64,000 bases of DNA from an uncultured Saprospiraceae bacterium (GTDB lineage Bacteria; Bacteroidota; Bacteroidia; Chitinophagales; Saprospiraceae), in the NCBI GenBank assembly GCA_937942435.1, contig CALDEM010000026.1, positions 3,529-67,528 of the forward strand, written 5' to 3'. Of the stretch, positions 5,235 through 35,246 are shown one piece after another. The notes under the pieces were generated by a model that searched no databases, was not told the DNA's origin, and worked only from the letters and a program-made list of their open reading frames with translations. Each line of letters begins with the position of its first letter. The first letter of the stretch is position 1. Made by a program: the position numbers and the translations under genes.

Positions 5235-5416
5235 TCAATCTCATGTTTTGATGTCACTTTTCATCATTCGATCAGCGACTATTGGTTAAATTAACTGGAT
5301 GCTAAAGTCAATATTACTAATGTCTCATCATCCGAAACACCCTACCTTAGCAGTTAGGATGAACTCCACAATAATACTATTTTTTAAAAAAATACCGTCT
5401 CATTACATTTAAAAAG

Positions 5417-6445: not shown

Positions 6446-6462
6446 CATCCAAAAGGTAAACA

Positions 6463-6834
6463 ATGGCATACGACGAACATCTCGCAGATAGAGTAAGACA
6501 AATCTTTAAAGATCAAAAAGCAGACTTCTACGAAAAGAAAATGTTCGGCGGCTTATGTTTTATGATTGATGAAAAGATGTGCTGTGGCATTCTCTTCAAT
6601 AAAAAGAAAAACACTGACCTCTTGATGGCAAGAATAGGAGAAGACGCTTCATCCTCAGCCATGTCTAAAGAAGGATGCCAGCCTATGGACTTCACAAGGC
6701 GACCCATGAAGGGCTTTGTCTTTGTTACTCCCGATGGATATGACATGGACGATCAGTTATTGTATTGGGTGAAATTATGTCTTGATTTTAATCCATTTGC
6801 GAAAGCGAGTAAAAAGAGAAAAACCAACAAATAG
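6463..6834 (+). CDS. TfoX N-terminal domain-like protein
   Basis: 123 aa. LADRVRQIF...KKMFGGLCFMIDEKMCCGI matches the TfoX_N pattern. Confidence 0.6.
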   Translation: MAYDEHLADRVRQIFKDQKADFYEKKMFGGLCFMIDEKMCCGILFNKKKNTDLLMARIGEDASSSAMSKEGCQPMDFTRRPMKGFVFVTPDGYDMDDQLLYWVKLCLDFNPFAKASKKRKTNK

Positions 6835-6954
6835 CTCCTAATCATCTACTTGGCCTTACTAGCACTAACCCATAGGATCGCTTTATCTTTCAGACATAAT
6901 ATATATCTTACATCACCCAGTATTTTTTAAAAGTATAAATGGATACCGAGTCTA

Positions 6955-7944: not shown

Positions 7945-8066
7945 GACTCACTAAGAAGCTTAAAGAATCATAAGTTATAATCCACTTAAAGATATTCGCT
8001 GCGTCCTAACAAATTAATGTTCTGCATCAGCTATTCATAGTACCAACTAAACAACTTAAAATTAGA

Positions 8067-8099
8067 AAAGGGTCTTGGCGTTATAGCCAAGACCCTTTG
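8067..8099. terminator. Bidirectional intrinsic terminator between convergent genes
   Basis: A 10-bp GC-rich stem (GGGTCTTGGC / GCCAAGACCC) is flanked by AAAA on one side and TTTGTCATTT on the other. Confidence 0.75.
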
Positions 8100-8129
8100 T
8101 CATTTCAATTAAACTGTAATTAGAAATTT

Positions 8130-11100
8130 CTAATCACAGAAGAACATATAGTTTCCACAAGTTTTCATAAAGTGAACATCACAACCATTGGCTGATTTGA
8201 TTTTAAAGGCTTGTCTATCGCGATCATTAGTATTGAGCGCTGAGTACTCATAGTGGTGTTGCTCTCCAAGTCCCAAGAGTCCCTTCTGTCCTCTGTCTAA
8301 AGTGACATTGGAGAAGAGTCCTGCACTTGCACCGGCAAATCCATTGCTATATCCCATCGATCTAAATACGTAATCCAAGTACTGCTGATCTCCTTGATTA
8401 GTACTATGTCTATCAGATAGCTTCTGATAAAACTGAGCTGGAGTTAAGCTATGACTATTACCAAACTCTGGATATGTACCCAAGCGAGCAACGCTCTTGG
8501 CTGGACCAGACGGAATCGTAAAGATTGCAACATTCCCTTTTTCTCCACAGTTACATCCCGCTACAGCAACTGGCGCTGGCTTAGGTGCTGGAGGGGGTGG
8601 CGTTGCCTTTACAGGTTCTGGTACCGGAGCTGGTTTAGGCGCTGGCGCTGGTGTCTCAACCTTTACTGGAGGCGGTGGTGGAGGTGTTGTCTCTCCTCCA
8701 CATCCTTTCATGCCTAGTAACCACCAAGCCAATAGTAACAACAGTGGTATTAATAACCACCACCATTTGAACCATCCTCCTCCTGATTCGGCAGCAGTCG
8801 CAACAGCTGCTGCTTTCTTCACTGGTGCTGCAGCCACCTTCTTTTTCACTGGCGCTGGCTCAACCTTCTTAGGTTCTACTTTCTTAGGCTCAGGCTTCTT
8901 AGCAACTACTGTAGCTGCTGTCGCAACCGCTGCAGCCGCAGTTGCAACCGGAGCTACTTTCTTTTCTTTCTTCTGTAAGCAAGATCTACCCACCTCGCGG
9001 CCTGTTTTATCAAAGAGGATATCCATGAAGTACTTGCCTTTCTCCTTGCGCTTGTACATGGATTCGTCATTGTGATACTTCAACACTCCTGAGAGTTCTT
9101 CATCTCTTTCTTTACCCGTTCTAAAGCCTTCACTTCTGAGCTTGACATCTCCATCTTTGTCATAAAGGGCAAAGTAGAACTGTCCATCACTATCATGCTT
9201 AAATAGTGCTACGTTGTTCTGCTTATCGTTGACCTTACGACCTTCGTACTCCTTACATGCTAAGTAATCGTCCTCTTTGTCTTTAGGAGGCGCTGGCTTA
9301 GGCGTTGGCGGTTCTGGCACTGCAGCCTTAGGCACCTCTGATACCAAAGGCGCAGCAACAGCAGCAGAGGCCGCAGCAACAGCAGCTCCTGGGAACCATG
9401 CTCTTGCAGCAGATTTTTCCTTATGAGGACAACTTCTTGCTATCTCCTGATGGTTACCTGCCTTGAGTACTGTAAAGAAGTATCCTGCCTTTTCATCTAT
9501 GCTAAATCGCTCTTCGAGCTCTCTATTTTTTATGACCGAAGCGATACCATTATCTCTGGCCTTTTCAGTTGTATAACCTTCACTACGCATCACAATCTTA
9601 CCGTCATCTACCCAAGCAAAGTAGTGTTCTCCTTCATGTGCAAACGTTATAAAGTCTTTATGATCTGCGCTAACGTCACTCATATGAGACTCATACACTC
9701 TGCATGCTAAGTAGTCATCTGATTTAGCCTTCGTCGCAGCAGCAGCCGTAACTGCAGCAGCGGCAGCCGCCGCCGCCTTCTCTTCTTCTGCCTTAGCAGC
9801 AGCTCTACTACTGATCGAACTTGGATACCAATACATCGCAGCTGCCTTATCTTTGTATGGGCAACTTCTGGCTATTTCTTGGTGATTGCCGGCTTTAAGA
9901 ACCGTAAAGAAATGTCCTGCCTTCTCGTCTAAGCTAAAACGCTCTTCTACCTCTCTATTTTTTATAACCGAAGCTATACCATTATCTCTGGCACTTTCAG
10001 ACCCGTATCCTTCACTTCTCATGACAACCTTTCCTTCGGCAATCCAAGCAAAGTAGTGTTCACCATCGTGTGTAAATGTTATAAAGTCGTCATGCTCTTT
10101 AGTAACATCTCCCAGATGAGACTCATACACTCTACATGCTAGGTAATCATCTGACTTTGCTTTCGCTTTTGCTGCAGCGGCAGCAGCAGCGGCCGCAGTT
10201 GCAGCTGCAGCCTCTTCTTCTGCTTTCCTTTTTGCCGCAGCTTCCTCTTCTGCCTTTCTTTTGGCAGCAGCTTCTTCCTCTGCTTTCTTAGCAGCCAATG
10301 CTGCTGCAGCAGCTGCCGCCCTTTTACCTATCTCTCCTGGATGCCAATACATAGCACCCGCATGATCTCCATTAGGGCAACCTCTTCCAATCTCTTGGTG
10401 GTTACCTGCCTTAAGGATTAGAAAATGAGAACCATCCTCTTCAATCACGCTATAGCGCTCCTCTAGATCTCGATTTTTAAGTACTGATTGGATACCATTG
10501 TCTCTTGACTTCTCGGTAGTATATCCTTCACTTCGTAAGATGACTTTACCTTCCCCTACCATAGCGAAGTAAAACTCACCTTCTTCAGAAAAAATGATGA
10601 AGTCATCACTATCAGGGCTCTTACTGCTCATGTGCCCTTCGTATGCACTGCAAGCGAGATATTCATCTTGACCAGCCTTTTTGGCAGCACCAGCACCACC
10701 TGTCGCTAACAGCAGAGAGCCGATAGCCACTTCCATTTCTTCCTCAGTGTTGAAGAAGAAACTCTTAGCTATGTTCTTACCATCTCCATCTTTGAGATAG
10801 TAGTAGAACTTATCATTTTTAGTAGTTTTCGATTCATAGTTGCCTCGGTCGGGGCCAAATTCTAATACCCTCTCTATCTTTGCTTGGCCCTGCTCTTGCG
10901 TCTCAAAACCTCTTACATCACTATTGAGAAGAATCGTCTTCTCTTCTGCATTTCTAAATGTAAAATAGTGTTTGCCATTGCCACTTCTAAATAACTGATA
11001 TGTGATATCCGTATCGTGGTATTTGCCATCAGCGAGATATACTTTATCGGCCTTTGGTTTTTTAGGTCCTGTTCTTTTCTTTCTTTTCTTCTTAGGTGCT

Positions 11101-11966
11101 TCACCACCCGCTGTGGCTCCTGCACTTGCCGTCGTAGTCGCAGCAGTGGCCGTTGAGGTTGAAGCTATACCTTGTGCAGTTGTAGAACCAGCTCCACTAC
11201 CTCCTCCTCTGCCACTCCCGCCGATTAGCGTAGAGATCGCAGCATCTCTTTCAGCTTCGCTATCAAACCAAGCACTTGTTGCTATTTCTTGATGGTTACC
11301 TGCTTTTAGGTTAAAGAAGTACTTACCGTTAGGATGTTGCTTGCGCTCGTATCTTGCTTCAAGGACCATATTTTTAGTAACAGAGTTGACCCCATTGTCA
11401 CGAGAGGTGTCACTAGAATAGCCTTCACTGATCATGTATATACTTCCATCTACTCGATATGAGAAGTAGGATTCTCCCGCTGCCGCAAATGAATCAAATC
11501 CATCTTTGACATCATCAGAACCATTAGTTACATAAAAGTTCAGCGGCTTGTAGTCATCTCCCTTACCGTCAGTATCATACGCTTCTCCACCATCGGGCTG
11601 TGCAGCAGGAGTTGTACTCGCTGAGGATGTCGACTTAGTTGAAGAGGTGCTTGATGATTTGCTACTGGATGAAGATCTACTTCTTTGGGCATAGTCCTTT
11701 GCTTTCTTAAGTGCCACAGCATCAGTATATCCTACCGATCTGGCTATCTCTTGATTGTTGCCTGCTTTTAAGATAAAGAATGTCTCTCCTCCTTCAGTTA
11801 CTTCGCTGTAGCGTTCGACCTTACTGATATTCGTCTTGACGGATTCGATTCCATTGTCCCTTGCATCTTTACCAGTGTAAGCTTGACTTTCAAGGATCGT
11901 GTTCCCATCCTCGTCAAGTATCTGGAAGTAGTAATTTTCTCCTCTTATGAACTTCCTTAGTTTCAT
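8130..11966 (-). CDS. Giant tail-anchored protein with seven double-YegP/DUF1508 modules (about 14 half-repeats), a single C-terminal TM helix, a poly-Pro spacer and a Cys-containing C-terminal domain
   Basis: Recurrent pattern YF..-G..I..SEGY....RDNGI.SV.KN...RY/F...G.YFF.LKAGNHQEIARS. Start is taken at ATG 11966 (MKLRKFIRGENYYFQ), because the first module begins there. The ORF is open to 12041. Confidence 0.8.
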   Translation of the reverse strand: MKLRKFIRGENYYFQILDEDGNTILESQAYTGKDARDNGIESVKTNISKVERYSEVTEGGETFFILKAGNNQEIARSVGYTDAVALKKAKDYAQRSRSSSSSKSSSTSSTKSTSSASTTPAAQPDGGEAYDTDGKGDDYKPLNFYVTNGSDDVKDGFDSFAAAGESYFSYRVDGSIYMISEGYSSDTSRDNGVNSVTKNMVLEARYERKQHPNGKYFFNLKAGNHQEIATSAWFDSEAERDAAISTLIGGSGRGGGSGAGSTTAQGIASTSTATAATTTASAGATAGGEAPKKKRKKRTGPKKPKADKVYLADGKYHDTDITYQLFRSGNGKHYFTFRNAEEKTILLNSDVRGFETQEQGQAKIERVLEFGPDRGNYESKTTKNDKFYYYLKDGDGKNIAKSFFFNTEEEMEVAIGSLLLATGGAGAAKKAGQDEYLACSAYEGHMSSKSPDSDDFIIFSEEGEFYFAMVGEGKVILRSEGYTTEKSRDNGIQSVLKNRDLEERYSVIEEDGSHFLILKAGNHQEIGRGCPNGDHAGAMYWHPGEIGKRAAAAAAALAAKKAEEEAAAKRKAEEEAAAKRKAEEEAAAATAAAAAAAAAKAKAKSDDYLACRVYESHLGDVTKEHDDFITFTHDGEHYFAWIAEGKVVMRSEGYGSESARDNGIASVIKNREVEERFSLDEKAGHFFTVLKAGNHQEIARSCPYKDKAAAMYWYPSSISSRAAAKAEEEKAAAAAAAAVTAAAATKAKSDDYLACRVYESHMSDVSADHKDFITFAHEGEHYFAWVDDGKIVMRSEGYTTEKARDNGIASVIKNRELEERFSIDEKAGYFFTVLKAGNHQEIARSCPHKEKSAARAWFPGAAVAAASAAVAAPLVSEVPKAAVPEPPTPKPAPPKDKEDDYLACKEYEGRKVNDKQNNVALFKHDSDGQFYFALYDKDGDVKLRSEGFRTGKERDEELSGVLKYHNDESMYKRKEKGKYFMDILFDKTGREVGRSCLQKKEKKVAPVATAAAAVATAATVVAKKPEPKKVEPKKVEPAPVKKKVAAAPVKKAAAVATAAESGGGWFKWWWLLIPLLLLLAWWLLGMKGCGGETTPPPPPPVKVETPAPAPKPAPVPEPVKATPPPPAPKPAPVAVAGCNCGEKGNVAIFTIPSGPAKSVARLGTYPEFGNSHSLTPAQFYQKLSDRHSTNQGDQQYLDYVFRSMGYSNGFAGASAGLFSNVTLDRGQKGLLGLGEQHHYEYSALNTNDRDRQAFKIKSANGCDVHFMKTCGNYMFFCD
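9390..10154 (-). repeat. Two adjacent ~432-nt coding repeat units (YegP modules 5 and 6, highly similar at protein level)
   Basis: KSDDYLACRVYESH...FITF.H.GEHYFAW...MRSEGY...ARDNGIASVIKNRE.EERFS.DEKAG.FFTVLKAGNHQEIARSCP occurs twice, 144 codons apart. Confidence 0.85.
10207..10296 (-). repeat. Three tandem 30-nt units encoding (A)EEEAAAKRK
   Basis: Units at 10207-10236, 10237-10266 and 10267-10296 are near-identical. Translation is AEEEAAAKRKAEEEAAAKRKAEEEAAA. Confidence 0.85.
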
Positions 11967-12335
11967 AGTACTTGTGGTTTTAACGTTTAAATAATTAGCC
12001 GGCATCCCATAAATCGTCCGACGTAATAAAAATGATTTCACCCTATATAAACAAGCTTATAATATTGGGCTCAAATCCCCTTTGAACGGAAAAAATAGGG
12101 AAAATATGAATGGATGAAGAATCTTTGGATCACTTTAGAACTTTAACTAATAAGTTCTCGATAAAAAGCCCTAATTCCTTCGGGGAGGAAATGTTAAAAA
12201 CTCGACTATTTGACTCTAATATATCGCCTATAATATCACTAATCTGAAGTCAAGAGCCAGTGTCGCACTTAAAAATCAAGCCTAAGAAACAACAAAGGTG
12301 CACAAGCACATAAACACTTAATCATATGGGACACT

Positions 12336-13700
12336 TTACCCCCTCGACAAGGTCTCAGAAATATCTGTATTGGAGGCTTGGATAGCTGGGAGTAGAGATG
12401 CAAAGAAACCAAGTAAAATAGCTGCGAGAAGAAGCCACCATTCATTGGGCAGCATATATCCTCCTGTGAAGTCATATCGATAGTCTTCCTTCATGACTTT
12501 ACCGATGATGTACATCCCTGTATGGCTCAAGATGATGCCTATGATGTATCCAAGAATCGCTAAGATGATGCCCTCTAAAATAATCAAACTAAACAGGGTT
12601 GACTTACTTCCGCCCATCACCCGCATCAAGGCAAGTTCATACTTGCGATCTTTTAAAGAACTGTAGAGTGATATAAATATGCTTAGGCCCGAGACGAATA
12701 TGATGACCATAGCTAAGATCCTTAATGCATACTCGGCGCTACTCATCATACTAAACAATCGATTGATCTCTATAGCTGGTGTTGCCGCTTGCATCTCGGT
12801 ATTCTCATTGATGCTTCGGCCCATGTTAAGCGCTTGAAAGTTGTTGCCCTTAAACCGAAGTAATAACGAAGTGATGGATCCTTCATCATCTTCTAAACTC
12901 AACGCCTTGGGTGTCTCAGCATGACTATGTCCATGCGCGTCTTGGTGATCATCATGATCATGAGCGGAGTGATCGTGTCCAGCATGATCATGCCCTTCAC
13001 GATCTCGACCATCATTGTCATCACTTTGTTCGATGGATTGTTCGTCTTCAGCAACAGCTTCTGCGCCATGATCATGGTCATGTACATGCCAATAGGTCTG
13101 GGGAGTAGTTAGGATCAACTGATCAACTATCGTCCCTGATGATGCTAAGATGCCAACTACGATAAAGTCAGGTGTCTCATCATGCTCAAGGCCATCATCA
13201 TCGACCAATCCATGAGAACTCTTAAAGTGATCACCTACTTTGAGTTGAAGGTCGCGAGCAGCAGATGCACCAAGCGTCACATCATAGTTATGAATGAACA
13301 TTTCGCCTTGAGCGAGCTGAAGGTTGTACCAATCAGTTATATCTGTAGTCGTACCAACGATACGATATCCTTTGTAAGAATCACCCATCGACAATGGTAA
13401 TGCTGACTTAATCAGAGGATGCTTAGGATTAAGAAAAGGGCGGATCTCTCCAAGTGTTATGTTGCCTGTAGGCGCATCTATGTGATACATACTGCTCAAG
13501 ATCAACTGAAGCGGACTTCCTTTAGATCCAATGACCAAGTCCACCTCGGCTAAGTTCTTCTCAAAGTTTTTCTGAATCTGATCCTCTAACAAAAACAGCA
13601 TAGATATCAATCCAACGCCTAATCCAAATAGCAAGAGGCTAAGCGTCGTATTGAGTGGCTTACTCAGTAGATTCTTCCATGATAACTTCAATAGATTCAT
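12336..13700 (-). CDS. ABC transporter permease, FtsX/MacB-type, with a His/Asp-rich insertion in the large extracytoplasmic loop
   Basis: One N-terminal TM helix, a ~280-aa loop, then three C-terminal TM helices (FtsX architecture). The loop contains HVHDHDHG...GHDHAGHDHSAHDHDDHQDAHGHSHAE. Confidence 0.8.
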   Translation of the reverse strand: MNLLKLSWKNLLSKPLNTTLSLLLFGLGVGLISMLFLLEDQIQKNFEKNLAEVDLVIGSKGSPLQLILSSMYHIDAPTGNITLGEIRPFLNPKHPLIKSALPLSMGDSYKGYRIVGTTTDITDWYNLQLAQGEMFIHNYDVTLGASAARDLQLKVGDHFKSSHGLVDDDGLEHDETPDFIVVGILASSGTIVDQLILTTPQTYWHVHDHDHGAEAVAEDEQSIEQSDDNDGRDREGHDHAGHDHSAHDHDDHQDAHGHSHAETPKALSLEDDEGSITSLLLRFKGNNFQALNMGRSINENTEMQAATPAIEINRLFSMMSSAEYALRILAMVIIFVSGLSIFISLYSSLKDRKYELALMRVMGGSKSTLFSLIILEGIILAILGYIIGIILSHTGMYIIGKVMKEDYRYDFTGGYMLPNEWWLLLAAILLGFFASLLPAIQASNTDISETLSRG

Positions 13701-14323
13701 AAGCTGATCATATTCTTGAAGTTATCCTTTAGGCGTTGATCATGTGTGACAACTATCAGCGTAGCGTCATACTTATCAGCTTGCGTTTTAAGCAGCTCGA
13801 TGACTTGTTCAGTATTAGTATCATCAAGTGCAGATGTTGGCTCGTCGGCAAATATGATTTTTGGCTCATTGACCATCGCTCTCAAGATGGCTACTCTTTG
13901 TTGTTCGCCAAGGCTTAATTGATTGGTCCTTTTGTTGCCCTTGCCATCCAAGTTAAGATCAGAAAGTAATCCTTTTACCTTATCGCGTTGAGCAACACCT
14001 CCTGAAAGAGTCTGAGCCAATGTGATGTTATCAATTACATCAAGTGATCTTAAAAAGTGAGGCACTTGAAAAATCATACCCATATTGCTACCTCTGAACT
14101 TATCGATATCAGAAGATGTCATGGCTGTGATCTCTTTATCAAGAATAGTTATGGAACCAGAAGTTGGCTTTCTTAATCCAGCTAATAGATGAAGCAACGT
14201 AGTCTTGCCACAACCTGAAGCTCCTATAATCAATGTGTGCACTCCTTGTTGTATCTCAATATCCTCAAAAGACAGATTTTGCCCTCCTTCATAAGTATAT
14301 GAAAGTTGTGAAGTACGAATCAT
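13697..14323 (-). CDS. ABC transporter ATP-binding protein (LolD/MacB-like)
   Basis: Walker A GASGCGKTTLL, signature LSLGEQQRVAI, Walker B IIFADEPTSALD. Start is taken at ATG 14323 (MIRTSQL), which avoids overlap with the upstream gene. Overlaps the permease by 4 nt. Confidence 0.85.
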   Translation of the reverse strand: MIRTSQLSYTYEGGQNLSFEDIEIQQGVHTLIIGASGCGKTTLLHLLAGLRKPTSGSITILDKEITAMTSSDIDKFRGSNMGMIFQVPHFLRSLDVIDNITLAQTLSGGVAQRDKVKGLLSDLNLDGKGNKRTNQLSLGEQQRVAILRAMVNEPKIIFADEPTSALDDTNTEQVIELLKTQADKYDATLIVVTHDQRLKDNFKNMISL

Positions 14324-14340
14324 GAAGTGAAGGTAATCTT

Positions 14341-14715
14341 CTATTGCGATTTTCTTGGAGATAAAAGTCTCCAATTAAACCAGTGGCCCATCAACAAGAC
14401 AAATCCACCTATCGCCATCAACGGATGTCCTATGGCTGGCACCAAAAGGCCAAAGACAATAACCAAAGCTCCGCCACCGATCATCAATTGAGGTATAAGC
14501 TTACCATGACCTCTTAATCCGTTGTATATGGACCACAAACCTAAGATGGCAGAAGTTAAGATAACGGCTGCTTCAATGACGCCGTGTGTACCTTCTTGGA
14601 TAGATCCAAGTAAGCCTAAGGAGATCATTAAGGGAAGTGCTGCACAATGCACAGCGCAAAGACCTGAGGTAATTATACCCAATTGATCAATCTTACTTTG
14701 ATTCGTTCTACTCAT
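14341..14715 (-). CDS. MerC-family membrane protein
   Basis: About 125 aa with four hydrophobic helices and GLCAVHCAALPL (the Cys-x-x-His-Cys region typical of MerC-domain proteins). Start is taken at ATG 14715, not the TTG at 14754. Confidence 0.6.
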   Translation of the reverse strand: MSRTNQSKIDQLGIITSGLCAVHCAALPLMISLGLLGSIQEGTHGVIEAAVILTSAILGLWSIYNGLRGHGKLIPQLMIGGGALVIVFGLLVPAIGHPLMAIGGFVLLMGHWFNWRLLSPRKSQ

Positions 14716-14957
14716 GCTTATGCAACAATGCTGCAAATATATAGTTTTTGTCAATAAAGTAAAATTACAATTAGCAACAGTTTATGTAAGCTATCTATAT
14801 ACTTTGATTTAAAATCACCACTTGATATCTGCGCTTGTTTTGCATGTAGGCCATGACATGTTAACCTAACTCATGCTTCTTTATCTTATTTGAGGGCATT
14901 CTTTAGTCTTTGATTTAGCATAGTCCGTCGATTTACTTGGAAAAGATAATTTTTTAC

Positions 14958-14987
14958 TGGAAACTTTGAAACCAATTAGAGTTTCCA
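14958..14987. promoter_or_regulatory. Candidate TetR operator (perfect 8-bp inverted repeat)
   Basis: TGGAAACT-N14-AGTTTCCA sits 18 nt upstream of the TetR ATG at 15005. Confidence 0.5.
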
Positions 14988-15004
14988 ACGTTCTTATAAC
15001 CATT

Positions 15005-15628
15005 ATGATAACGACAACAGATACTGATCTCTATCAAATCTTAGACTTCTCGACAGCTCAATTCATGATGTTTGGCATCAAGTCTGTGAGCATGGATGAC
15101 CTAGCAACCAAACTCGGTATATCCAAAAAGACGCTATACCAGCATTTTACCAACAAACAAGACTTGGTTAAGAAATCACTCTCGAGGCACGTTAGACTTG
15201 AAGAGAATGTCATTGAAGAGATTTCCCATACGGCCAATGATGCCATTGATGAGATGGCTCAAATAGCTGAACATACGGTGATTCACTTTAGACAGATCAA
15301 ACCCATCTTAATCCATGATCTTCAAAAGTACTATCGCGGCATATGGCAGTCTGTAGTCTTACAACAGTCACAGTTCATAAAAACCAAGATCGAGACCAAC
15401 ATCAAAAGAGGCATAACTGAAGGATATTATAGACCGGAGCTCAACTCTGATATCATAGCAAAACTCTATGTCGCTAAGTCTTTTAGCCTTGTAGATGAAA
15501 ATCTATTCTCACTGGTCGACTATCCTCGAGATGTTCTTGTTAGACAACACATTCTATATCATCTCAATGGCATTCTTTCAGATAAAGGAAGAAAGCATGT
15601 ATCTGACTTTAACGCACTAAACTTATAA
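15005..15628 (+). CDS. TetR/AcrR family transcriptional regulator
   Basis: N-terminal HTH MDDLATKLGISKKTLYQHFTNKQDLV. Lies directly upstream of the efflux operon. Start is taken at ATG 15005, not TTG 14966. Confidence 0.85.
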   Translation: MITTTDTDLYQILDFSTAQFMMFGIKSVSMDDLATKLGISKKTLYQHFTNKQDLVKKSLSRHVRLEENVIEEISHTANDAIDEMAQIAEHTVIHFRQIKPILIHDLQKYYRGIWQSVVLQQSQFIKTKIETNIKRGITEGYYRPELNSDIIAKLYVAKSFSLVDENLFSLVDYPRDVLVRQHILYHLNGILSDKGRKHVSDFNALNL

Positions 15629-25530: not shown

Positions 25531-26040
25531 ATGGCAAATAATAATGATCAAACGGCATCATTCATGGTGCGCTTCTCACAGAAGATATATGAAGATGGCC
25601 AAGGTGATGCGCAAGTACAATGGCGAGGCAAGATCTCTCATGTACAAGGAGGAGATAGTGAGAACTTTTCAGAATTTTCAGATGCTATCCAGTTTATACA
25701 ATCCAAGTTATCAGAGTTAACAAAACAAGCTACAGTTGATAAGACACCAGAAGAACAAGAAGGTATACTAACCAGAAGTTTTGATATCTGGAAGAAGCTA
25801 TCGACTACAGGAGCTAAGATGGCCATAGAAACTATAAAAGATCCAAGGAAAGGAGTTGCACAACTCCAAGAACAGATCAGCCAAGTAGGCGAAGATATCG
25901 GACAGCGTCTTGAGATAGATGAGTGGCGTGGCGCAAAAAAAGCTGACTATAATGACCTCAAGGACACACTCCAACAAGTCACTAGCCAGCTTGCTAGTCT
26001 CCATGATAAAGTGGATAAACTAAGCAAGAATAAAAAGTAA
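25531..26040 (+). CDS. Hypothetical protein (N-terminal FMVRF...WRGKISHVQGG module plus a coiled-coil tail)
   Basis: 169-aa ORF, 12 nt upstream of the SARP/BTAD regulator gene. No TM segment or signal peptide. Confidence 0.5.
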   Translation: MANNNDQTASFMVRFSQKIYEDGQGDAQVQWRGKISHVQGGDSENFSEFSDAIQFIQSKLSELTKQATVDKTPEEQEGILTRSFDIWKKLSTTGAKMAIETIKDPRKGVAQLQEQISQVGEDIGQRLEIDEWRGAKKADYNDLKDTLQQVTSQLASLHDKVDKLSKNKK

Positions 26041-26052
26041 GACTTTCGATAA

Positions 26053-26859
26053 ATGTCTACGCTCAGTGACCGCCTCTTACAACTTGAAGAAAAGCTGACT
26101 AACGCTTCTCTGCAGATTAGAACTTTAGGTTCTTTTGGTGCTGTAGTTGATGGAGATACTGTCACATCCAAAGCTTGGGGTAGAGATAAGACATTACAGT
26201 TATTTCAGTTTCTAATTACGGCTAGATCGAGAAGTAGTCTGCATAGAGAAAAGATCATCGATCGACTATGGGAAGATGCAGAAAAGGATGAAGGTGATCG
26301 CAACTTTAAGGTAGCACTACACGGCATCAACAAAGCACTCGAACCCAATCGCCCACCACGGACAGATCCAAAGTATATCAACAGACAAGGCATCACATAT
26401 CAACTCAATCAAGAAGAGATGTGGATCGATGCACAGGCGATTGAAGATTATATCGCTATAGCAAATGAAGCTCGCGGTACCGACCATACCACAGCGATCA
26501 GCGCGTATCGATCTGCCTTAGAATGCCACAACGGTCTCTATCTACCTAATCGCATATATGAAGATTGGAGTAGCGAAGAGCGAGAAAGACTCCAAGTATT
26601 GATACTCAGCGCATACATCTCACTTGCAGAGTTGATGCTGGATCAACAACCTTTAGAAACTGTAAGGCTGGCTCAAAAAGCAATCTCGATCGACAGCACT
26701 TGGGAGGATGCCTATCAACTACAGATGAAAGCATACCTCGCACAAGGCAATCGTCCTGCGGCTATAAAGTCATATCAGCAGTGCATCAAAGTACTCGATA
26801 AGGAGTTCGGATTAGATCCACTTCCTGAGACTCAGAAGATCTATGATTCTATAATATAG
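26053..26859 (+). CDS. SARP-like regulator (winged-helix DNA-binding domain plus BTAD domain)
   Basis: LQIRTLGSFGAVVDG...W.RDKTLQLFQFLI...IIDRLWED (OmpR/SARP winged helix), then a TPR-like BTAD region ending QQCIKVLDKEFGLDPLPETQKIY. Confidence 0.7.
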   Translation: MSTLSDRLLQLEEKLTNASLQIRTLGSFGAVVDGDTVTSKAWGRDKTLQLFQFLITARSRSSLHREKIIDRLWEDAEKDEGDRNFKVALHGINKALEPNRPPRTDPKYINRQGITYQLNQEEMWIDAQAIEDYIAIANEARGTDHTTAISAYRSALECHNGLYLPNRIYEDWSSEERERLQVLILSAYISLAELMLDQQPLETVRLAQKAISIDSTWEDAYQLQMKAYLAQGNRPAAIKSYQQCIKVLDKEFGLDPLPETQKIYDSII

Positions 26860-27819: not shown

Positions 27820-28542
27820 ATGGCTACAGCAACAGCAACAAAAAGAAGAAAAGCAGCTAAGAAAGTAAATGTAAAGAACACGCTTAACGATCTTAACAGC
27901 GCTCTTATCAACGGTTCAGAAGAACTTATCGACGCAGCAGTAATAACTGGTGAGAAATACCAGAAATTATTTGCTAAAAGCGTAAAAAAATCTACTCCAT
28001 TAGTAGAGAAACAAGTAGATATCGTATTTGAAACGATCGAAAGCTTAAAAGATCAGTTTGACTTCGGTACTGTAAGGTTTAAGAAGTTGATCGGATGGAA
28101 TGACAAAACAATCGCAAAGTTCAGAAAGAACGCTACTAAAAGAGTAGAGACGCTTAAAAAGAACGCTGAGGAAATCATCGATGACGTTCAGACAGAACTC
28201 AATGAGCGTATACCTGCAATCCCAGCACCAACAAAAGCAGTCAAAGAAGTTGAAGTAATAGCTAAAAAGGCTGTTGTAAAAACTAGAAAAGTTGCAGCAA
28301 GAAAGACTAAGGAAGTGGCAAAAACTGCTAAAGCGGTTGTATCTAACACTGATCTTAAAGTAATCGATGGTATCGGACCAAAAATGGAGAAAGTCCTTAA
28401 GGCTGGTGGCATCAAGACTATCAAAGCACTTTCAAGAGCGTCAGCAACTACAGTTGAGAACGCAATAGAAAAGTCAGGAGCTTCACTAAGAGGAGCAAAT
28501 GTTAAGTCTTGGATCTCTCAAGCAAAGAAGATCAACAAGTAA
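27820..28542 (+). CDS. Phasin-like / basic-tract / helix-hairpin-helix protein (hypothetical)
   Basis: Helical, amphipathic N-terminal half. Then a Lys/Ala/Val-rich tract (KKAVVKTRKVAARKTKEVAKTAKAVV). Then a C-terminal HhH motif (IDGIGPKMEKVLKAGGIKTIKAL). Confidence 0.45.
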   Translation: MATATATKRRKAAKKVNVKNTLNDLNSALINGSEELIDAAVITGEKYQKLFAKSVKKSTPLVEKQVDIVFETIESLKDQFDFGTVRFKKLIGWNDKTIAKFRKNATKRVETLKKNAEEIIDDVQTELNERIPAIPAPTKAVKEVEVIAKKAVVKTRKVAARKTKEVAKTAKAVVSNTDLKVIDGIGPKMEKVLKAGGIKTIKALSRASATTVENAIEKSGASLRGANVKSWISQAKKINK

Positions 28543-29173: not shown

Positions 29174-29962
29174 ATGGTAGAAACAGAAGAAATATCTTCT
29201 AGTGAGATAAGCAAACCTTCCTTGTTTTGGTTGGCGACTGAGGGTCATAGAGCACTCTTTGAACTAAGCACATTCCTTCCTTATAAACTCTTCAGAAATA
29301 GCGATAAAAGTGGCGATGGCCATCCTGTTCTCGTATTACCAGGATTTATGGCGACGGACGTCTCAACCGCACCATTGAGGTCATTCTTAAAGAACTTAGG
29401 CTATACGCCATATGGTTGGGGTGCTGGACGTAACTATGCTAATGAAGAGTATCTCGATCTCTTACTCGAACGGGTTGAAGATATATTTCTTACTCATCGA
29501 ACAAAGGTGAGCATCATAGGATGGAGCCTGGGGGGTGTATTTGCCAGAGAAATAGGCAAGCGTAAGGCCAATCTCATCAGACAGATCATCACTTTGGGAT
29601 CTCCATTTGCAGGAGTTAATGAACCCAACAATGCCATGTGGCTGTACGAGCTGTTGACAGATGGTCGAGGTACCGAGGATGTAGACCCCGAGTTGTTAAG
29701 GGGCATACCAGATCCGGCACCAGTCCCGACGACGGCGATATATAGTAAGCAAGATGGCGTTGTGCCTTGGGAGACTTGCATGGAGGCGGTAGAGGATGAG
29801 ATACATCAAAACATACAAGTCAGAGGTAGTCATCTCGGTCTTGGTGTTAATCCAGCTGTACTCGAGATCATAAAAGATCGTCTACAGCTTGATGAGCACA
29901 ATTGGACTCACTTTGAACCTGCTAACAAATTAGAGGACAAGCTCTTTTATCCTTCTTTATAA
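29174..29962 (+). CDS. Alpha/beta hydrolase (lipase/esterase-like)
   Basis: Nucleophile elbow GWSLGG, a candidate acid in SKQDGVVPW, and a candidate His in RGSHLGL. Confidence 0.7.
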   Translation: MVETEEISSSEISKPSLFWLATEGHRALFELSTFLPYKLFRNSDKSGDGHPVLVLPGFMATDVSTAPLRSFLKNLGYTPYGWGAGRNYANEEYLDLLLERVEDIFLTHRTKVSIIGWSLGGVFAREIGKRKANLIRQIITLGSPFAGVNEPNNAMWLYELLTDGRGTEDVDPELLRGIPDPAPVPTTAIYSKQDGVVPWETCMEAVEDEIHQNIQVRGSHLGLGVNPAVLEIIKDRLQLDEHNWTHFEPANKLEDKLFYPSL

Positions 29963-30065: not shown

Positions 30066-31886
30066 ATGATAGAAAAGTTACTTGATCCATTAGACAATAA
30101 GAATATCACGCCGATAAGTGGGATGGATGCGGCGTTCTTATATGCAGAGACAGATACAAGTCCGATGCACGTAGGAAGCGTTGCTATCATAGAAGGCTCT
30201 TTAGAATTTGATACGTTTAGAAAGGTTTTACTGTCGCGGATCCATCAGATGCCAGCGTTACGCAAGAGATTGATGTTTGTGCCGATGAGCATCGACTACC
30301 CATATTGGGTGGATGATCCAAACTTTAATATAGACCTGCACTTACAGCATGTTGCACTACCTCAACCTGGTGCGTGGAAGCAACTTAGAGCACTTGCTTC
30401 AAGCGTATTTACAGAACCGCTTGACCGGTCGAGGCCCTTATGGTCATTTACCTTTGTTGAAGGGCTTGATGAGATTCCTCAAGTACCTAAAGGATCAGTC
30501 GCGATTATCTCTAAAGTCCATCATGTTGCAATAGATGGGATGGCAGGGGCTGGCATGATGAGTTTGATATTTGACATGTTCCCCAAAGCAAAAGAGATAC
30601 CTACCCCCAAGCCATTCAAACCAAAAAAACTACCAAATGAAATAAACCTTGTTGTCAAGAGTGCCATAGATTTTGCAAAAAATCCTCTTAAACTTCCAAC
30701 AATAGTAGGCAACACAATAGCAGCTTCGGTTAAAACGGGCGTCATCACAAGATCACAGAGCTTAGATCTTCCTACTGCTCCATTTTCTGCTCCTGCTACT
30801 CCACTTAATGGAATCATCTCAGCGCAACGCAAGTGGAACTCTGCCATCCTAGATCTCGCAAGGGTAAAAGCACTTAAGAATGCCATGGGCACCACTCTCA
30901 ATGATGTGATACTCGCGATATGTGCAGGTGCGCTCAGAAAGTATCTCAATGATAAAGATCAACTACCCAAGAAACCTCTGGTCGCTATGGTTCCAGTATC
31001 AACTAGAGCCTCCACCGACACATCTAATAGCGGCAATCAGATATCAGCCATGTTGGTACAGCTACCTACTAACATAGAAGATCCAATAGAGAGGTTAGAA
31101 ACCATCCATGATAACACAACGTTGGGGAAGACATATCAAGGAGCTGCGGGGGCAAAGACGCTTTCTAATCTTGCAGAAGCTGTTCCATTTGGTGTTGCTA
31201 ATCTAGCATCACGCATGTACAGCAGGTTCAACATGTCTAAGATGCACAAGCCCGTTTTCAATGTTGTTATTACAAATGTACCGGGCCCTACAATCCCTAT
31301 CTATCTGCAAGGTCACAAGCTACTCTCTGTGATGGGCACAGCCCCAATCTTAGATGGTATGGGCCTCATCATAACGATACTGAGTTATGATGGCCACATC
31401 ACTATAAGCCCCACATCTGATGTCAAGTCGATGCCTGATATAGATACATTTACTAAGTATATACTTCAATCAGCAAACTACTTGGAGAAGCACGTACTTG
31501 AGCATCAGAAAACTAAAACTGTAAAAAAGAAAAAAATTGAAAAACCCAAGTCTGATAAGCTCTTTAATCATATCAAAAAATACTTAAAGGACAACCCTGA
31601 TTTTCTAAAACCTAATGCTGGCCTATTTCAGATTAATATAACTGGAAAAGCAAAGTCTGCATGGCAATTGAACTTAAACAAACCTCCAGGCACAATTAAA
31701 AAAGGGACTATGAAAAGTCCAGATGTTACTTTAACAGTAAATGATGAACACCTTTATAAAATCGGTACGGGAGAATTAAACTTTCAAACAGCTTTCATAC
31801 AAGGGAGATTAAAAATACAGGGAGATATGAAAACAGGTATGAAGCTGGCAAAGATCTTGTCTCTAATACCTAAGATGAAAGCATAG
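30066..31886 (+). CDS. Wax ester synthase/diacylglycerol acyltransferase (WS/DGAT) fused to a C-terminal SCP2 sterol/lipid-carrier domain
   Basis: Catalytic HHxxxDG motif (KVHHVAIDGMAG, nt 30519-30539), the NDVILA motif, and an SCP2-like C-terminus (ELNFQTAFIQGRLKIQGDMKTGMKLAKIL). Confidence 0.85.
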   Translation: MIEKLLDPLDNKNITPISGMDAAFLYAETDTSPMHVGSVAIIEGSLEFDTFRKVLLSRIHQMPALRKRLMFVPMSIDYPYWVDDPNFNIDLHLQHVALPQPGAWKQLRALASSVFTEPLDRSRPLWSFTFVEGLDEIPQVPKGSVAIISKVHHVAIDGMAGAGMMSLIFDMFPKAKEIPTPKPFKPKKLPNEINLVVKSAIDFAKNPLKLPTIVGNTIAASVKTGVITRSQSLDLPTAPFSAPATPLNGIISAQRKWNSAILDLARVKALKNAMGTTLNDVILAICAGALRKYLNDKDQLPKKPLVAMVPVSTRASTDTSNSGNQISAMLVQLPTNIEDPIERLETIHDNTTLGKTYQGAAGAKTLSNLAEAVPFGVANLASRMYSRFNMSKMHKPVFNVVITNVPGPTIPIYLQGHKLLSVMGTAPILDGMGLIITILSYDGHITISPTSDVKSMPDIDTFTKYILQSANYLEKHVLEHQKTKTVKKKKIEKPKSDKLFNHIKKYLKDNPDFLKPNAGLFQINITGKAKSAWQLNLNKPPGTIKKGTMKSPDVTLTVNDEHLYKIGTGELNFQTAFIQGRLKIQGDMKTGMKLAKILSLIPKMKA

Positions 31887-31967: not shown

Positions 31968-34900
31968 CTACTTCGCTTTTGTTTTGGATTTTGGTGCGGG
32001 TAGTTTTTTAACTTCTTGACCAAGCTCTTTTAGATACAGATTTCTTACTGCCTCTATCTTTTTATCCATATTACGTTTTGTCCATCCTTCTGTAGAGATG
32101 GGAGGAAGTATGACTACTTCAACTTGTCCAGGTTGTATCATAGCTGATCCTCTCGCCATAATATCATGAGCGTTCTTAATAACCAAAGGAACAACAGGCA
32201 CACCTGCTTCCATCGCTAAATGAAAGGCACCCTTTTTAAATGAACCCAAATTGTAATCATGGCTTCGTGTTCCCTCAGGAGCTATAGCCACTGAGGTACC
32301 ACTCTTGAGCGTATCAACTGCAGGCTTCATGGCCGCTATAGCTTTGTCTTTGTTCTTGCGGTCTATAAAAATGACACCGGCTGCTTTGAAGAATGGTCCA
32401 ATGGGCGTTTTTTCTAACTCCTTCTTCGCTACCGCAACTACATCTTTTTTCAAAAGTTTAGCTACAATTAGAAAATCAGAGTTGCTCTGATGATTAAACA
32501 GAAAGACTGCTGGGCGCTGAGACCAGATATGCTCTTCTCCTTTAACAACGACATTCATCCCCGCAATCTTAGTACCAATATCGCCTACTGTACCAATCAT
32601 GGAGTTAACACCATCACGCCATGACATAGACGAAGCACCTGAGAGTGCGCCAATCATAGCTGCTGGTATGATACTACCAAAAGCAAGTACCGTTCTTGCT
32701 ATATTAGAAATGACAGGTCGCTTCTCATCATTAAATCTATAGACTGGCCAGTTGTTTTTATAAGCTAATGACGATAGTTCATTGTCAGGGTTAACTGGTC
32801 TTGGATGGCCCACTATCTCCAGTAACGGTAAGTCTTCGGCACTATCTGTATAAAAGTAACTTTTGTCAAGATCAAGATTATGCTTTTCAGCAAGCTCCTT
32901 AGCTGCCATAGACTTGCCTTCTCCCCAGCATGCTGGCTCTATAATGTCTCCTGTGAATTTTCCATTTTTGACTTCCATCCGAGTGCACATGACGTGCTCC
33001 ACTCCGAGATCTCGCGCTATCGGATTCACCTGATAGGGTGTGGCTGCAGAGATGATTGCTACCGTATGTCCCTTAGCAAGATGGGCATCAACGAGTGCTC
33101 TCGACTCCGGAAATATCTCTTTAGCTAGGTGTTTATAATAAACCTCCTCTCCTACCTCTATGAACACTTGTTCATTGGTGCCTTTAACTCCTTTTGCACT
33201 GATCGCAGCAAGTCCAGCAAAGTTTTTGTTACCTATAGCGTACACCATTACACCACTAAACTGCGCAACCACTTCTTTAGTGGACATCTTCCCACTCAGT
33301 AATCTTGATTGGAAAAACTGTTTAGCAGAAAAACCTTTGATCAATGTTCGATCCAAATCAAAGAAAGCGCCAATATGGGCGCCAGACTCTCCCTCCACGA
33401 CCATCGAGGTCATGGCCTCAGTCTTGGATCCGGGTACGAGCTTCTTTTCTATAGGAATAACCTTGGCACCAGTATTTTTTGAAATTATAATTTCTTGTAG
33501 CTCTTGTATGCTTCTTGAGAGGTTTCTTAGTCTTTCTATAAATGCCTCTATTTCTTCTGCTTTATCATTCTCCTCTGTTGGTATCAGATTCAAGTTTTTA
33601 ACTAATCTTATACCATTTAAGATAAGCGGTTTGGATACAGATTCTATCCTATGGATCCTACCTTGCCAATGAAGCTCATCTCCTAAGAACATACAAGCAT
33701 GAAGTAGATTTTGCTTAGTGATCTCAACATCTTTGTCTATAGATTGTAATGCCCTTCCAACAACTTGATATGCTTCTAAGTAAATCGACAAAACTGCCTG
33801 GGCGACTAGGACACCTTGATCAGAAAGTAATCTTGTAACTTCTGATTCTGATCCTTCCAATATTTTACGCCAGTTGGGATTGAGATAATCTAAGTCTTGT
33901 TCTATCTCATCACTAAAAACAGCTTTTTTAGAAAAGAAAAATTCAAATTTGAAAAGATCTCTTAATGACATCATTTCCTCCCAGAACTTTAATGTTCTCT
34001 CTGTTTTGGGAAGACTCCTAACATTGATCAATGCTAACTCTATAAAGGCTCCCCTATACAGGTGATGAGCGGCCATATTAGCATAGTACGTAGCAGATAA
34101 GAAGTTACGTGTTACTATGGCATACTTTGCTTTGACACCTTCTCCAAGTTGTTGGATCAACTCGGCATTTTTCAACAGGTTGACTGCTTGCTGTACAGAA
34201 GAACCTATCTGCTTACCTCTATCGACAAGTATATCTGGCTTATGGTTTTCAATAAGATGCATGAGTGCTACAACATCACGTTCTAACTCTCTCTTTGTCA
34301 GTGCAAACTTGCTGAGCAACGTTGTACAAATCAGAGATGCAGTAGTAACAGGCGTCACTTGGTTGATGCCGTGGATTAACTCAAATGCGAAATGAGGAAG
34401 CTTATACTTTACATCAGGGTTATTGTCTTCGTCATCCGGTATTTGCGCTTGACGCTCATCGTTCATCTTGATCGGGTCACCGAAACGGATAGATATCTTC
34501 CCAAAGTTATCTCCCATCTTTCTGATGTAGTTTAAAAACCATAGTAAGTTCTCCGGTTTCTTATCCTTACCACGACCCTCACTTGTCATGTCCTCTACAT
34601 CAGGTATGAGATCATAGACCACAGAAACTGGGACATACTTTACTTCATCTTTTGATTGCTTTTCTGCCTCCACTATATACTTCAATATGCCCATCTTAGG
34701 CCATACCAACTTACCGGTGCGAGATCGAGTACCTTCTATCGCCCACATAAAGTGTGCTTTCTCATTAACTCGAGAAGAGATAAAATGTCTCAGCGCTGCT
34801 TTATAGATAACATTGTCTTTGAAAGATCTTCTGATAAATATAACTCCCGCTTTACGGCCTATGTCTCCAACACCTAAAAAGGCCATATTGATACCTGCGA

Positions 34901-35246
34901 ATATGTGTGGTATAGGTAAGCCATGACGAGCTAATACTAAGCCCAAAACCATCATGTCGATATAAGTCTTATGAGTCATGACAAAGGCCACCGAATGTCG
35001 TCGCATCAGCTTGGCCAACGCCTTCATCTCATTAGGATTGACATCTATTGTTTTGTCATAAGCCCGACCTAATATATACTGAGAAGCTTCAACAACCATG
35101 GCATCAATGAGCGGTGTCTGTGTAGTATATAATTCCTTTATATACTTCTCAGCATCCTCTCTGACCTCATCAATAGAAAGGTGTAGTTGATCTGCGATCT
35201 CGACTAACTTATTCTGAAAGTCATCATCATTGACTATGTGATCCAT
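31968..35246 (-). CDS. Triple-fusion acyltransferase: PlsB-like GPAT, HAD-superfamily phosphatase, and PlsC-like LPAAT
   Basis: N-terminal H-x4-D (THKTYID), FIRR and EGTRSRTGKL (PlsB motifs). Central FFDLDRTL (DxDxT), GEGKS and TDSAEDLP (HAD). C-terminal NHQSNSD (H-x4-D) and APEGTRS (PlsC). Confidence 0.8.
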   Translation of the reverse strand: MDHIVNDDDFQNKLVEIADQLHLSIDEVREDAEKYIKELYTTQTPLIDAMVVEASQYILGRAYDKTIDVNPNEMKALAKLMRRHSVAFVMTHKTYIDMMVLGLVLARHGLPIPHIFAGINMAFLGVGDIGRKAGVIFIRRSFKDNVIYKAALRHFISSRVNEKAHFMWAIEGTRSRTGKLVWPKMGILKYIVEAEKQSKDEVKYVPVSVVYDLIPDVEDMTSEGRGKDKKPENLLWFLNYIRKMGDNFGKISIRFGDPIKMNDERQAQIPDDEDNNPDVKYKLPHFAFELIHGINQVTPVTTASLICTTLLSKFALTKRELERDVVALMHLIENHKPDILVDRGKQIGSSVQQAVNLLKNAELIQQLGEGVKAKYAIVTRNFLSATYYANMAAHHLYRGAFIELALINVRSLPKTERTLKFWEEMMSLRDLFKFEFFFSKKAVFSDEIEQDLDYLNPNWRKILEGSESEVTRLLSDQGVLVAQAVLSIYLEAYQVVGRALQSIDKDVEITKQNLLHACMFLGDELHWQGRIHRIESVSKPLILNGIRLVKNLNLIPTEENDKAEEIEAFIERLRNLSRSIQELQEIIISKNTGAKVIPIEKKLVPGSKTEAMTSMVVEGESGAHIGAFFDLDRTLIKGFSAKQFFQSRLLSGKMSTKEVVAQFSGVMVYAIGNKNFAGLAAISAKGVKGTNEQVFIEVGEEVYYKHLAKEIFPESRALVDAHLAKGHTVAIISAATPYQVNPIARDLGVEHVMCTRMEVKNGKFTGDIIEPACWGEGKSMAAKELAEKHNLDLDKSYFYTDSAEDLPLLEIVGHPRPVNPDNELSSLAYKNNWPVYRFNDEKRPVISNIARTVLAFGSIIPAAMIGALSGASSMSWRDGVNSMIGTVGDIGTKIAGMNVVVKGEEHIWSQRPAVFLFNHQSNSDFLIVAKLLKKDVVAVAKKELEKTPIGPFFKAAGVIFIDRKNKDKAIAAMKPAVDTLKSGTSVAIAPEGTRSHDYNLGSFKKGAFHLAMEAGVPVVPLVIKNAHDIMARGSAMIQPGQVEVVILPPISTEGWTKRNMDKKIEAVRNLYLKELGQEVKKLPAPKSKTKAK

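Follow-up and report, generated by a model that had tools for sequence, protein, structure and literature searches.

This work describes a gene for a three-module glycerolipid enzyme from an uncultured Saprospiraceae bacterium. The gene lies on the minus strand of a stretch of 64,000 nucleotides (contig CALDEM010000026.1 of GenBank assembly GCA_937942435.1, positions 3,529 to 67,528), referred to here as the window, and encodes a single chain of 1092 amino acids (aa). From N- to C-terminus, this chain comprises a PlsB-type glycerol-3-phosphate acyltransferase (GPAT), a HAD-IB phosphatase and a PlsC-type 1-acylglycerol-3-phosphate acyltransferase (LPAAT). The fusion protein is a genuine, conserved and probably membrane-peripheral multi-enzyme of neutral-lipid synthesis; that its three modules form a true glycerolipid enzyme with a link to neutral-lipid metabolism is very probable. 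We consider it reasonably probable that the full three-step conversion of glycerol-3-phosphate (G3P) into lysophosphatidate (LPA), phosphatidate (PA) and diacylglycerol (DAG) would take place on this one chain.

The initial annotation, made from the DNA letters, had read the gene as one polypeptide with PlsB-like, HAD and PlsC-like modules. This is borne out by the open reading frame (ORF), by Pfam and NCBIfam profiles and by the motifs. The gene and its parts are located in the window as follows.

31968..35246, minus strand: whole gene of the GPAT-HAD-LPAAT fusion, 1092 aa, ATG start (ORF list and translation)
34590..35246, minus strand: residues 1-219, N-terminal helices and PlsB-type acyltransferase core with blocks I-IV (PF01553, BLASTP, Foldseek)
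34956..34973, minus strand: first HX4D motif, H92-D97 (translation; conserved in relatives)
33579..34589, minus strand: residues 220-556, GPAT_C helical domain (PF19277, E 8.6e-64, profile positions 1-342 of 344)
33369..33578, minus strand: residues 557-626, long helix and flexible linker, the fusion junction (dip in the predicted local distance difference test (pLDDT), start of alignment)
32727..33368, minus strand: residues 627-840, HAD-IB phosphatase module (TIGR01490, PF12710, Foldseek match to 3fvv)
32562..32726, minus strand: residues 841-895, hydrophobic and amphipathic helices ahead of the PlsC core (hydropathy and model)
32013..32561, minus strand: residues 896-1078, PlsC-type 1-acylglycerol-3-phosphate acyltransferase module (TIGR00530, PF01553, 5kym)

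Each of the motifs quoted earlier for two H-x4-D acyltransferase modules flanking a HAD module is found in the translation, at confirmed coordinates. The four blocks of the PlsB/GPAT family (HX4D, GxxFIRR, EGTRSR and a hydrophobic block containing proline) occur in the N-terminal module as HKTYID (residues 92-97), GVIFIRR (134-140, with FIRR from 137), EGTRSR (171-176, within EGTRSRTG at 171) and VPVSVVYD (205-212), and are followed by the nearly full-length GPAT_C domain that is likewise expected of this family. The HAD module carries motif I as D630-x-D632-x-T634 (FFDLDRT), motif II as S733, motif III as K778 (GEGKS) and motif IV as D801/D805 (TDSAEDLP). The C-terminal module contains NHQSNSD (918-924, with H919 and D924), FIDR (960-963) and PEGTRS (990-995, within APEGTRS). 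Pfam places the acyltransferase family PF01553 twice on the chain (combined E 2e-50), once in the N-terminal part and once at residues 899-1024, and the HAD family PF12710 at residues 627-810 (E 1.3e-34). Among the NCBIfam models, the HAD-IB subfamily TIGR01490 is matched with 174 bits against a cutoff of 98.3, in keeping with the presence of all four HAD motifs, and the AGP_acyltrn model TIGR00530 with 129 bits against a cutoff of 103, in keeping with the HX4D and EGTR motifs of the PlsC class.

The full-length GPAT models are not reached. PRK03355, named glycerol-3-phosphate 1-O-acyltransferase by NCBI, scores 511 bits, below its equivalog cutoff of 721, because the match spans only positions 187-773 of the 787-position profile. 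PRK11915 scores 301 bits (cutoff 698) and the PlsB models PRK04974 and TIGR03703 score 211 and 207.5 bits (cutoffs 610 and 618.5). By alignment, the GPAT part is thus a short form that lacks the N-terminal domain of about 190 residues found in PlsB and PlsB2. Between the HAD and PlsC cores, the model contains three helices (845-857, 859-873 and 876-894), and hydropathy along the chain peaks at residues 853-871 (Kyte-Doolittle 1.82). The PlsC of Thermotoga maritima (5kym) has an N-terminal two-helix motif and associates with the membrane in a monotopic manner. By analogy, residues 841-895 are likely a monotopic membrane-association element. A 170-aa ORF (33160-33672, plus strand) runs antisense to the fusion gene over the linker and HAD module and is assumed to be a by-product of the opposite coding frame.

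Delineation by profiles and structure prediction had been proposed as a check of the three-module reading, and the same three modules were recovered by Pfam and NCBIfam, by a PDB sequence search and by AlphaFold2 with Foldseek. The PDB search returned 9vuq, a glycerol-3-phosphate acyltransferase (E 3.7e-29), human GPAT1 (8e4y), 5kym (E 1.9e-24) and 3fvv. The AlphaFold2 model, built from 63 homologs, reached a mean pLDDT of 79.8 and a predicted TM-score (pTM) of 0.73, with a fall in pLDDT at about residues 590-610, in the linker. In Foldseek, the GPAT part matched human GPAT1 8e4y with TM(target) 0.68 over 603 columns, the HAD module matched 3fvv, a HAD-IB protein of unknown function, with TM(target) 0.80, and the PlsC module matched T. 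maritima PlsC 5kym with TM(target) 0.76.

The architecture is shared by more than 120 full-length relatives, mostly from Bacteroidota. In a database search, the best 120 relatives (60-94% identity, about 1080-1100 aa) all carried the same Pfam set. When one genome of each GTDB species was scanned, 38 loci were obtained, all in independent genomes and one of them on an 8-Mb chromosome. Most of these belong to Saprospiraceae (one at 94% identity), and others to further Chitinophagales, Cytophagaceae, Microscillaceae and Flavobacteriaceae, the latter represented by Muricauda and Croceivirga at about 49% identity. These two scans bear on the phylogenetic distribution that the initial annotation had asked for. 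In metagenomes of Bacteroidota, single chains with all three modules are common. A library clustered at 50% identity contained about five full-length fusion clusters (38-61% identity) and, lower down, HAD-PlsC proteins of two domains (about 475-510 aa, 35-51% identity) as well as GPATs encoded on their own, either as a short form of ~600 aa or as a long form of ~790 aa.

Conservation was assessed in two alignments, one of 13 fusions with identities of 37-82% and one of 63 sequences. Across the 13 fusions, GPAT blocks I-IV and the HX4D and PEGTRS motifs of the PlsC module are invariant or nearly so, and D630, D632, S733, K778, D801 and D805 of the HAD module are invariant. All three modules of the window protein thus keep their catalytic residues. 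For this reason, a catalytically dead acyltransferase module, which had been named beforehand as a finding that would speak against the pathway, does not apply to the window protein, in which both sets of motifs are intact and conserved in the alignments. A separate clade (P0122, P0271 and P0272, 1014 aa) has the histidine of the first HX4D motif replaced by proline (TPKSYLD), EGTRS changed to DGTRS and a shortened GPAT_C domain; the N-terminal acyltransferase may be inactive in these proteins.

Some loci fall outside the Bacteroidota by label. Four loci from metagenome-assembled genomes (MAGs) labelled Chloroflexota (L015, L023 and L033) or Verrucomicrobiales (L036) encode proteins 58-66% identical to the Saprospiraceae protein. 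They are probably mis-binned Bacteroidota contigs, with recent transfer as the alternative. A diverged triple fusion, P0128, with 38% identity and a KKSDENE repeat at its N-terminus, is encoded at positions 10001-13126 of a 136-kb contig (L043; JGI 3300056788 Ga0558717_00732). This contig has 26-33% GC, is dense in ORFans and encodes Fasciclin and EGF_3 proteins, a second acyltransferase, an ACBP gene directly adjoining the fusion and a eukaryote-type RPB1 C-terminal fragment whose best PDB matches are Pol II RPB1 (E 1e-37). Its gene content suggests a giant virus or an eukaryote with AT-rich DNA, and not Bacteroidota. Scans of IMG/VR, with the single protein and with an alignment, gave PlsC-like fragments only and no triple fusion, so that a viral origin is suggested by gene content alone.

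The genes around the fusion support a tie to neutral-lipid metabolism. On the plus strand of the window, the following neighbors were found.

30066..31886, plus strand: wax ester synthase/diacylglycerol acyltransferase (WS/DGAT) with C-terminal SCP2 domain, 606 aa (PF03007, PF06974, PF02036; TIGR02946 with 436 bits, cutoff 310)
29174..29962, plus strand: alpha/beta hydrolase of 262 aa with a GWSLG nucleophile elbow, PGAP1/LCAT/lipase-like (weak Pfam matches to PGAP1, LCAT and DUF676)
27820..28542, plus strand: Lys/Ala-rich protein of 240 aa with C-terminal DUF4332 (PF14229, E 2e-7; weak match to phasin PhaH NF045508, E 3.6e-5)
26053-26859 and 25531-26040, plus strand: BTAD-domain (SARP-like) transcriptional activator and coiled-coil protein, upstream of the lipid cluster at a distance of a few kb

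The WS/DGAT gene is convergent with the fusion gene, with 81 bp from stop to stop. Its product contains the motif HHVAIDG at residue 152 and the SCP2 domain at residues 500-598 (E 2.5e-20), a C-terminal extension known for WS/DGATs of Bacteroidota (PMC10351704). A homolog of the DUF4332 protein is found 1.8-7 kb from the fusion in many loci of Saprospiraceae and Flavobacteriaceae, and this protein is a possible cluster member, speculatively a lipid-droplet coat protein. Genes farther away in the window are unrelated (RND pump, PNP oxidase, ABC transporter, GntR and HemB). A promoter and terminator scan of the locus gave counts no different from those of shuffled sequence, and the terminator scan called none in the 81-bp convergent gap.

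Synteny was counted by tblastn of the window neighbors against 41 related loci. In 23 of these, the fusion and WS/DGAT-SCP2 are no more than about 2.2 kb apart, usually with the lipase-like hydrolase alongside, and in 18 of the 41, gpsA is the gene directly downstream of the fusion (NF009098, 508 bits). Most loci with neither gene have short flanks. In Saprospiraceae, the WS/DGAT gene and the fusion are convergent; in Flavobacteriaceae, the two are co-directional and the order is ABC1 kinase, WS/DGAT-SCP2, Hydrolase_4, lipase-like hydrolase, fusion and GpsA. This co-directional cluster is also present in a Bacteroidota MAG (L025, positions 4255-13849, with a PGAP1-like hydrolase of 384 aa), matching the Muricauda and Croceivirga loci (L026 and L031); its ABC1 atypical kinase and its monoacylglycerol-lipase-like Hydrolase_4 are absent from the window. 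The persistence of the linkage despite rearrangement argues for a functional connection. The Bacteroidota context of this cluster was also seen in a 2023 survey (PMC10351704).

Other fusions were found among distant representatives, namely HAD-PlsC-WS/DGAT (P0148, 969 aa), WS/DGAT-HAD-PlsC (P0149, 975 aa; P0152 is a probable fragment of this type) and a carboxylesterase-GPAT fusion (P0208, 1045 aa). As Rosetta-stone fusions, those with WS/DGAT independently tie HAD-PlsC to the DAG-consuming enzyme. The initial annotation had suggested that the chain feeds the adjacent WS/DGAT, and this functional link is strengthened by the synteny, by the WS/DGAT fusions and by a parallel cluster in mycobacteria.

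In this mycobacterial cluster, the modules are encoded by two separate genes. The Mycobacterium vicinigordonae locus (with the PlsB2-type P0301) reads carboxylesterase (BD-FAE/Abhydrolase_3), WS/DGAT, HAD-PlsC (603 aa) and PlsB2 (787 aa). An end-to-end alignment (38% identity, 490 columns, E 1e-112) links residues 598-1083 of the window protein to this HAD-PlsC, a two-domain protein of the kind that the initial annotation had mentioned for actinobacteria. The linker segment VPGSKTE (within residues 557-626) also opens the stand-alone mycobacterial protein. Residues 30-586 align with residues 211-766 of PlsB2 (BLASTP, 29% identity, E 3e-75), and the WS/DGATs of the two loci share 28% identity. 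The same arrangement has been described for the M. tuberculosis cluster Rv2485c (lipQ), Rv2484c (tgs), Rv2483c (HAD-PlsC) and Rv2482c (plsB2) (PMC10699116), and for the atf9-plsB-plsC operon of Rhodococcus jostii (PMC4850399). From the published synteny (PMC10699116), we infer that the M. vicinigordonae HAD-PlsC is the ortholog of Rv2483c. The C-terminal part of the window protein belongs to this Rv2483c type, both by its end-to-end alignment and by its context of PlsB2-type GPAT and WS/DGAT. An unfused pair is also present in a gammaproteobacterial MAG (L041, positions 9965-15173), which encodes HAD-PlsC (601 aa), a long-form GPAT (797 aa) and GpsA, with the GPAT start codon abutting the HAD-PlsC stop. 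By these alignments, the window protein corresponds to plsB2 and the HAD-PlsC gene, the middle pair of a cluster conserved across phyla, joined into one gene.

In the proposed pathway, the two HX4D modules would place acyl groups, from acyl-CoA or acyl-ACP, on the sn-1 and sn-2 positions of G3P to form PA. The DxDxT phosphatase, which would be Mg2+-dependent and tethered to the membrane by the helices preceding the PlsC core, would then convert PA to 1,2-diacylglycerol. The neighboring WS/DGAT-SCP2 would acylate the latter to triacylglycerol (TAG), or serve in wax ester synthesis, and the neighboring lipase-like hydrolase would probably remobilize the store. The route from G3P to DAG is the most economical reading, because two PA-making acyltransferase classes are fused to an intact phosphatase, beside a DAG user and often beside a G3P maker. 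The analysis shows the identity of the domains, their intact catalytic motifs, the conservation of the fusion, its homology with the mycobacterial pair and the conserved linkage with neighboring genes; we infer the substrates of the individual modules, above all PA for the HAD module, and any channelling from one module to the next. Which acylation comes first is not assignable from the present data: mycobacterial PlsB2 acylates the sn-1 position of G3P and also takes 2-acyl-G3P, and the PlsC-type PlsM can act first at sn-2 (PMC10593935).

Lipins use a DxDxT HAD catalytic core to convert PA to DAG. The initial annotation had drawn on this analogy with eukaryotic lipin/Pah1; it holds at the level of the superfamily and fails below it, as the module is of the HAD-IB type and resembles phosphoserine phosphatases in sequence and fold. 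No Pfam match to the Lipin/LNS2 family was found in the fusion protein at E<=0.01, and none of the 50 Foldseek matches listed is a lipin or Pah structure, so membership of the lipin-type phosphatidate phosphatases (PAPs) was rejected. Membership of the PAP2 type was set aside as well, with no Pfam match to PF01569 in the fusion protein or in the scanned neighbors. If the HAD module is a PAP, it would therefore represent an independent recruitment within the HAD superfamily. Precedents by analogy for HAD-like domains acting on glycerolipid phosphates are offered by PgpC of Escherichia coli, which belongs to PF12710, and by plant GPAT4/6/8, in which an active HAD-like phosphatase domain precedes the acyltransferase domain (PMC8155372). 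The HAD domain of HAD-PlsC was proposed as an alternative PAP for Rhodococcus and M. tuberculosis in 2016 (PMC4850399), a proposal repeated for marine bacteria (PMC10351704). In Rhodococcus it was made because PAP2 transcripts were low, and the authors stated that further work was required (PMC4850399); according to the 2023 survey, HAD-PlsC function 'remains to be elucidated' (PMC10351704). An experimental test of the proposal was not found in the full-text literature, a coverage that leaves out most subscription-journal papers. For the strongest form of the reading, in which one chain would lead from G3P through LPA and PA to DAG at the membrane surface with HAD-IB as a third, independently evolved PAP class that is neither PAP2 nor lipin, we see even chances.

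Several points weigh against this assignment. The sequence does not reveal the substrate specificity of the HAD module. The closest solved HAD structure, 3fvv, is functionally uncharacterised, the next closest in Foldseek are phosphoserine phosphatases, and model confidence is lowest in the HAD cap (residues 640-674). Among bacterial PAPs, a role in TAG synthesis has been demonstrated for the PAP2 type only (PMC8401914). Some loci (L001 and L033) have neither WS/DGAT nor gpsA within 10 kb, so that the product may also serve other lipids. Finally, the unfused operons run HAD-PlsC and then GPAT, whereas the fusion runs GPAT-HAD-PlsC, and because the module order reverses the operon order, the fusion did not arise by simple read-through or stop-codon loss.

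Of the other explanations, the one that survives best, though we consider it unlikely, is a route resembling that of plant GPAT4/6, in which the HAD module would dephosphorylate LPA (1- or 2-acyl-G3P) to monoacylglycerol, to be acylated in turn by WS/DGAT or by one of the fused acyltransferases. The HAD-then-acyltransferase order is indeed that of plant GPAT4/6/8, whose bifunctionality is proven and which make 2-monoacylglycerol with the same DXD/GDXXXD motifs (PMC8155372), the Flavobacteriaceae cluster includes the gene for the monoacylglycerol-lipase-like Hydrolase_4, and mycobacterial PlsM, of the PlsC type, acylates the sn-2 position of G3P first (PMC10593935). However, such a route leaves unexplained why a PlsB-type partner is constantly present, fused here and adjacent in mycobacteria and in the gammaproteobacterial MAG, and if an LPA phosphatase were joined to an LPA acyltransferase, the two would be in competition for one substrate. 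With a constant second acyltransferase, it is most economical to assume that both acylations precede dephosphorylation, as the G3P-to-DAG reading has it.

More doubtful is a housekeeping role, in which the protein would act as the PlsB/PlsC of the cell in making membrane PA, with the HAD module taking another membrane-lipid step, for example as a PgpC-like phosphatase of phosphatidylglycerophosphate (PGP), or having a regulatory or structural function. In its favor, some loci lack a nearby WS/DGAT and have only gpsA, a general glycerolipid gene, and E. coli PgpC falls into the same Pfam family. Bacteroidota, however, generally use PlsX/PlsY/PlsC for membrane lipids. PgpC orthology was not adopted, as BLASTP gave only a marginal match (E 4e-5 over 70 residues, motifs III-IV), and no PgpC model is among the NCBIfam matches of the fusion protein. 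Moreover, WS/DGAT-SCP2 and lipase-like genes are co-located with the fusion in most loci, fusions with WS/DGAT exist, and WS/DGAT occurs in only about 3% of Bacteroidota genomes (PMC10351704), yet the fusion is found beside it.

Slightly less probable again is that the HAD module would be a phosphatase of a soluble metabolite, such as phosphoserine or histidinol phosphate, fused for non-lipid reasons, or be catalytically silent. JGI names relatives 'putative phosphoserine phosphatase/1-acylglycerol-3-phosphate O-acyltransferase', phosphoserine phosphatases are the closest among the functionally characterised structures, and histidinol-phosphatase models of NCBIfam give matches below threshold. 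Yet the equivalog cutoffs are missed, both for SerB (TIGR00338, 36 bits against 144) and for histidinol phosphatase (NF052360, 117 against 280 bits; NF052359, 104 against 400 bits). In phmmer, phosphoserine phosphatases of the PDB align over residues 724-812 only, covering motifs II-IV without motif I or the cap. The HAD module is always embedded among glycerolipid enzymes, and it is not silent, as judged from the invariance of all four catalytic motifs across 37-94% identity. The idea that assembly or a frameshift artificially merged separate genes into one long ORF deserves virtually no credence and was rejected: unfused versions of the modules do occur in other phyla, but the architecture is identical in the best 120 relatives and the 38 independent loci, complete chromosomes included, and the linker is conserved.

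The modules, the gene cluster and the hypothesis of a HAD-PlsC PAP are already known. The triple fusion itself, which the initial annotation believed not to have been described, was indeed not found in the full-text literature, with most subscription-journal papers lying outside the coverage. NCBI and JGI annotate the family only as 'HAD-IB family hydrolase' or 'phosphoserine phosphatase/AGPAT'. The former label hides two of the three modules, and this annotation can be improved. The PAP step of bacterial TAG synthesis is poorly defined, and only PAP2 enzymes have been tested for it. The triple fusion and the fusions of HAD-PlsC with WS/DGAT provide genomic evidence that would place the HAD module between PA synthesis and DAG use, and the fusion offers a one-gene test system and a practical reagent for the bacterial PAP question. 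If the G3P-to-DAG reading is true, it would identify the enzyme behind the DAG that bacteria use in WS/DGAT-dependent TAG synthesis, also in the Rv2483c cluster of M. tuberculosis. It would carry over to Rv2483c itself, in an organism whose TAG storage is linked to persistence, and would be useful for engineered oil production. If the giant-virus origin of the 136-kb contig holds, the module would also have moved into viruses of eukaryotes.

Compared with known systems, the GPAT part shares acyltransferase blocks I-IV, the GPAT_C domain and the fold of 8e4y with E. coli PlsB and human GPAT1. The match to the 823-position PlsB model, however, begins at position 222, so that the ~220 N-terminal residues of PlsB have no counterpart here. 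The C-terminal part resembles the PlsC proteins of T. maritima (5kym) and E. coli in its HX4D, FxxR and EGTR motifs and in the hydrophobic helices that precede the core, whereas it is here the C-terminal module of a 1092-aa protein and scores 79.5 bits against a cutoff of 501 with the E. coli PlsC equivalog. The HAD module shares PF12710 with E. coli PgpC (YfhB), which also acts on a phospholipid phosphomonoester; PgpC, in contrast, is a stand-alone protein with PGP as its substrate. The plant sn-2 acyltransferases GPAT4/6/8 likewise combine a HAD-like domain (DXD, GDXXXD) with a following PlsC-superfamily acyltransferase carrying blocks I-IV (PMC8155372), but these enzymes turn LPA into 2-monoacylglycerol, lack a PlsB-type module and serve the synthesis of polyester (cutin), and the known likeness is one of domain order and motifs. 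A parallel in gene content is offered by the TAG cluster of mycobacteria and rhodococci, in which esterase/lipase, WS/DGAT, HAD-PlsC and PlsB2-type acyltransferase are likewise clustered. Here, the cluster belongs to the phylum Bacteroidota, the WS/DGAT carries an SCP2 domain, the hydrolase is PGAP1/LCAT-like instead of BD-FAE/Abhydrolase_3, and PlsB2, without its N-terminal domain of ~190 residues, and HAD-PlsC are joined in one chain.

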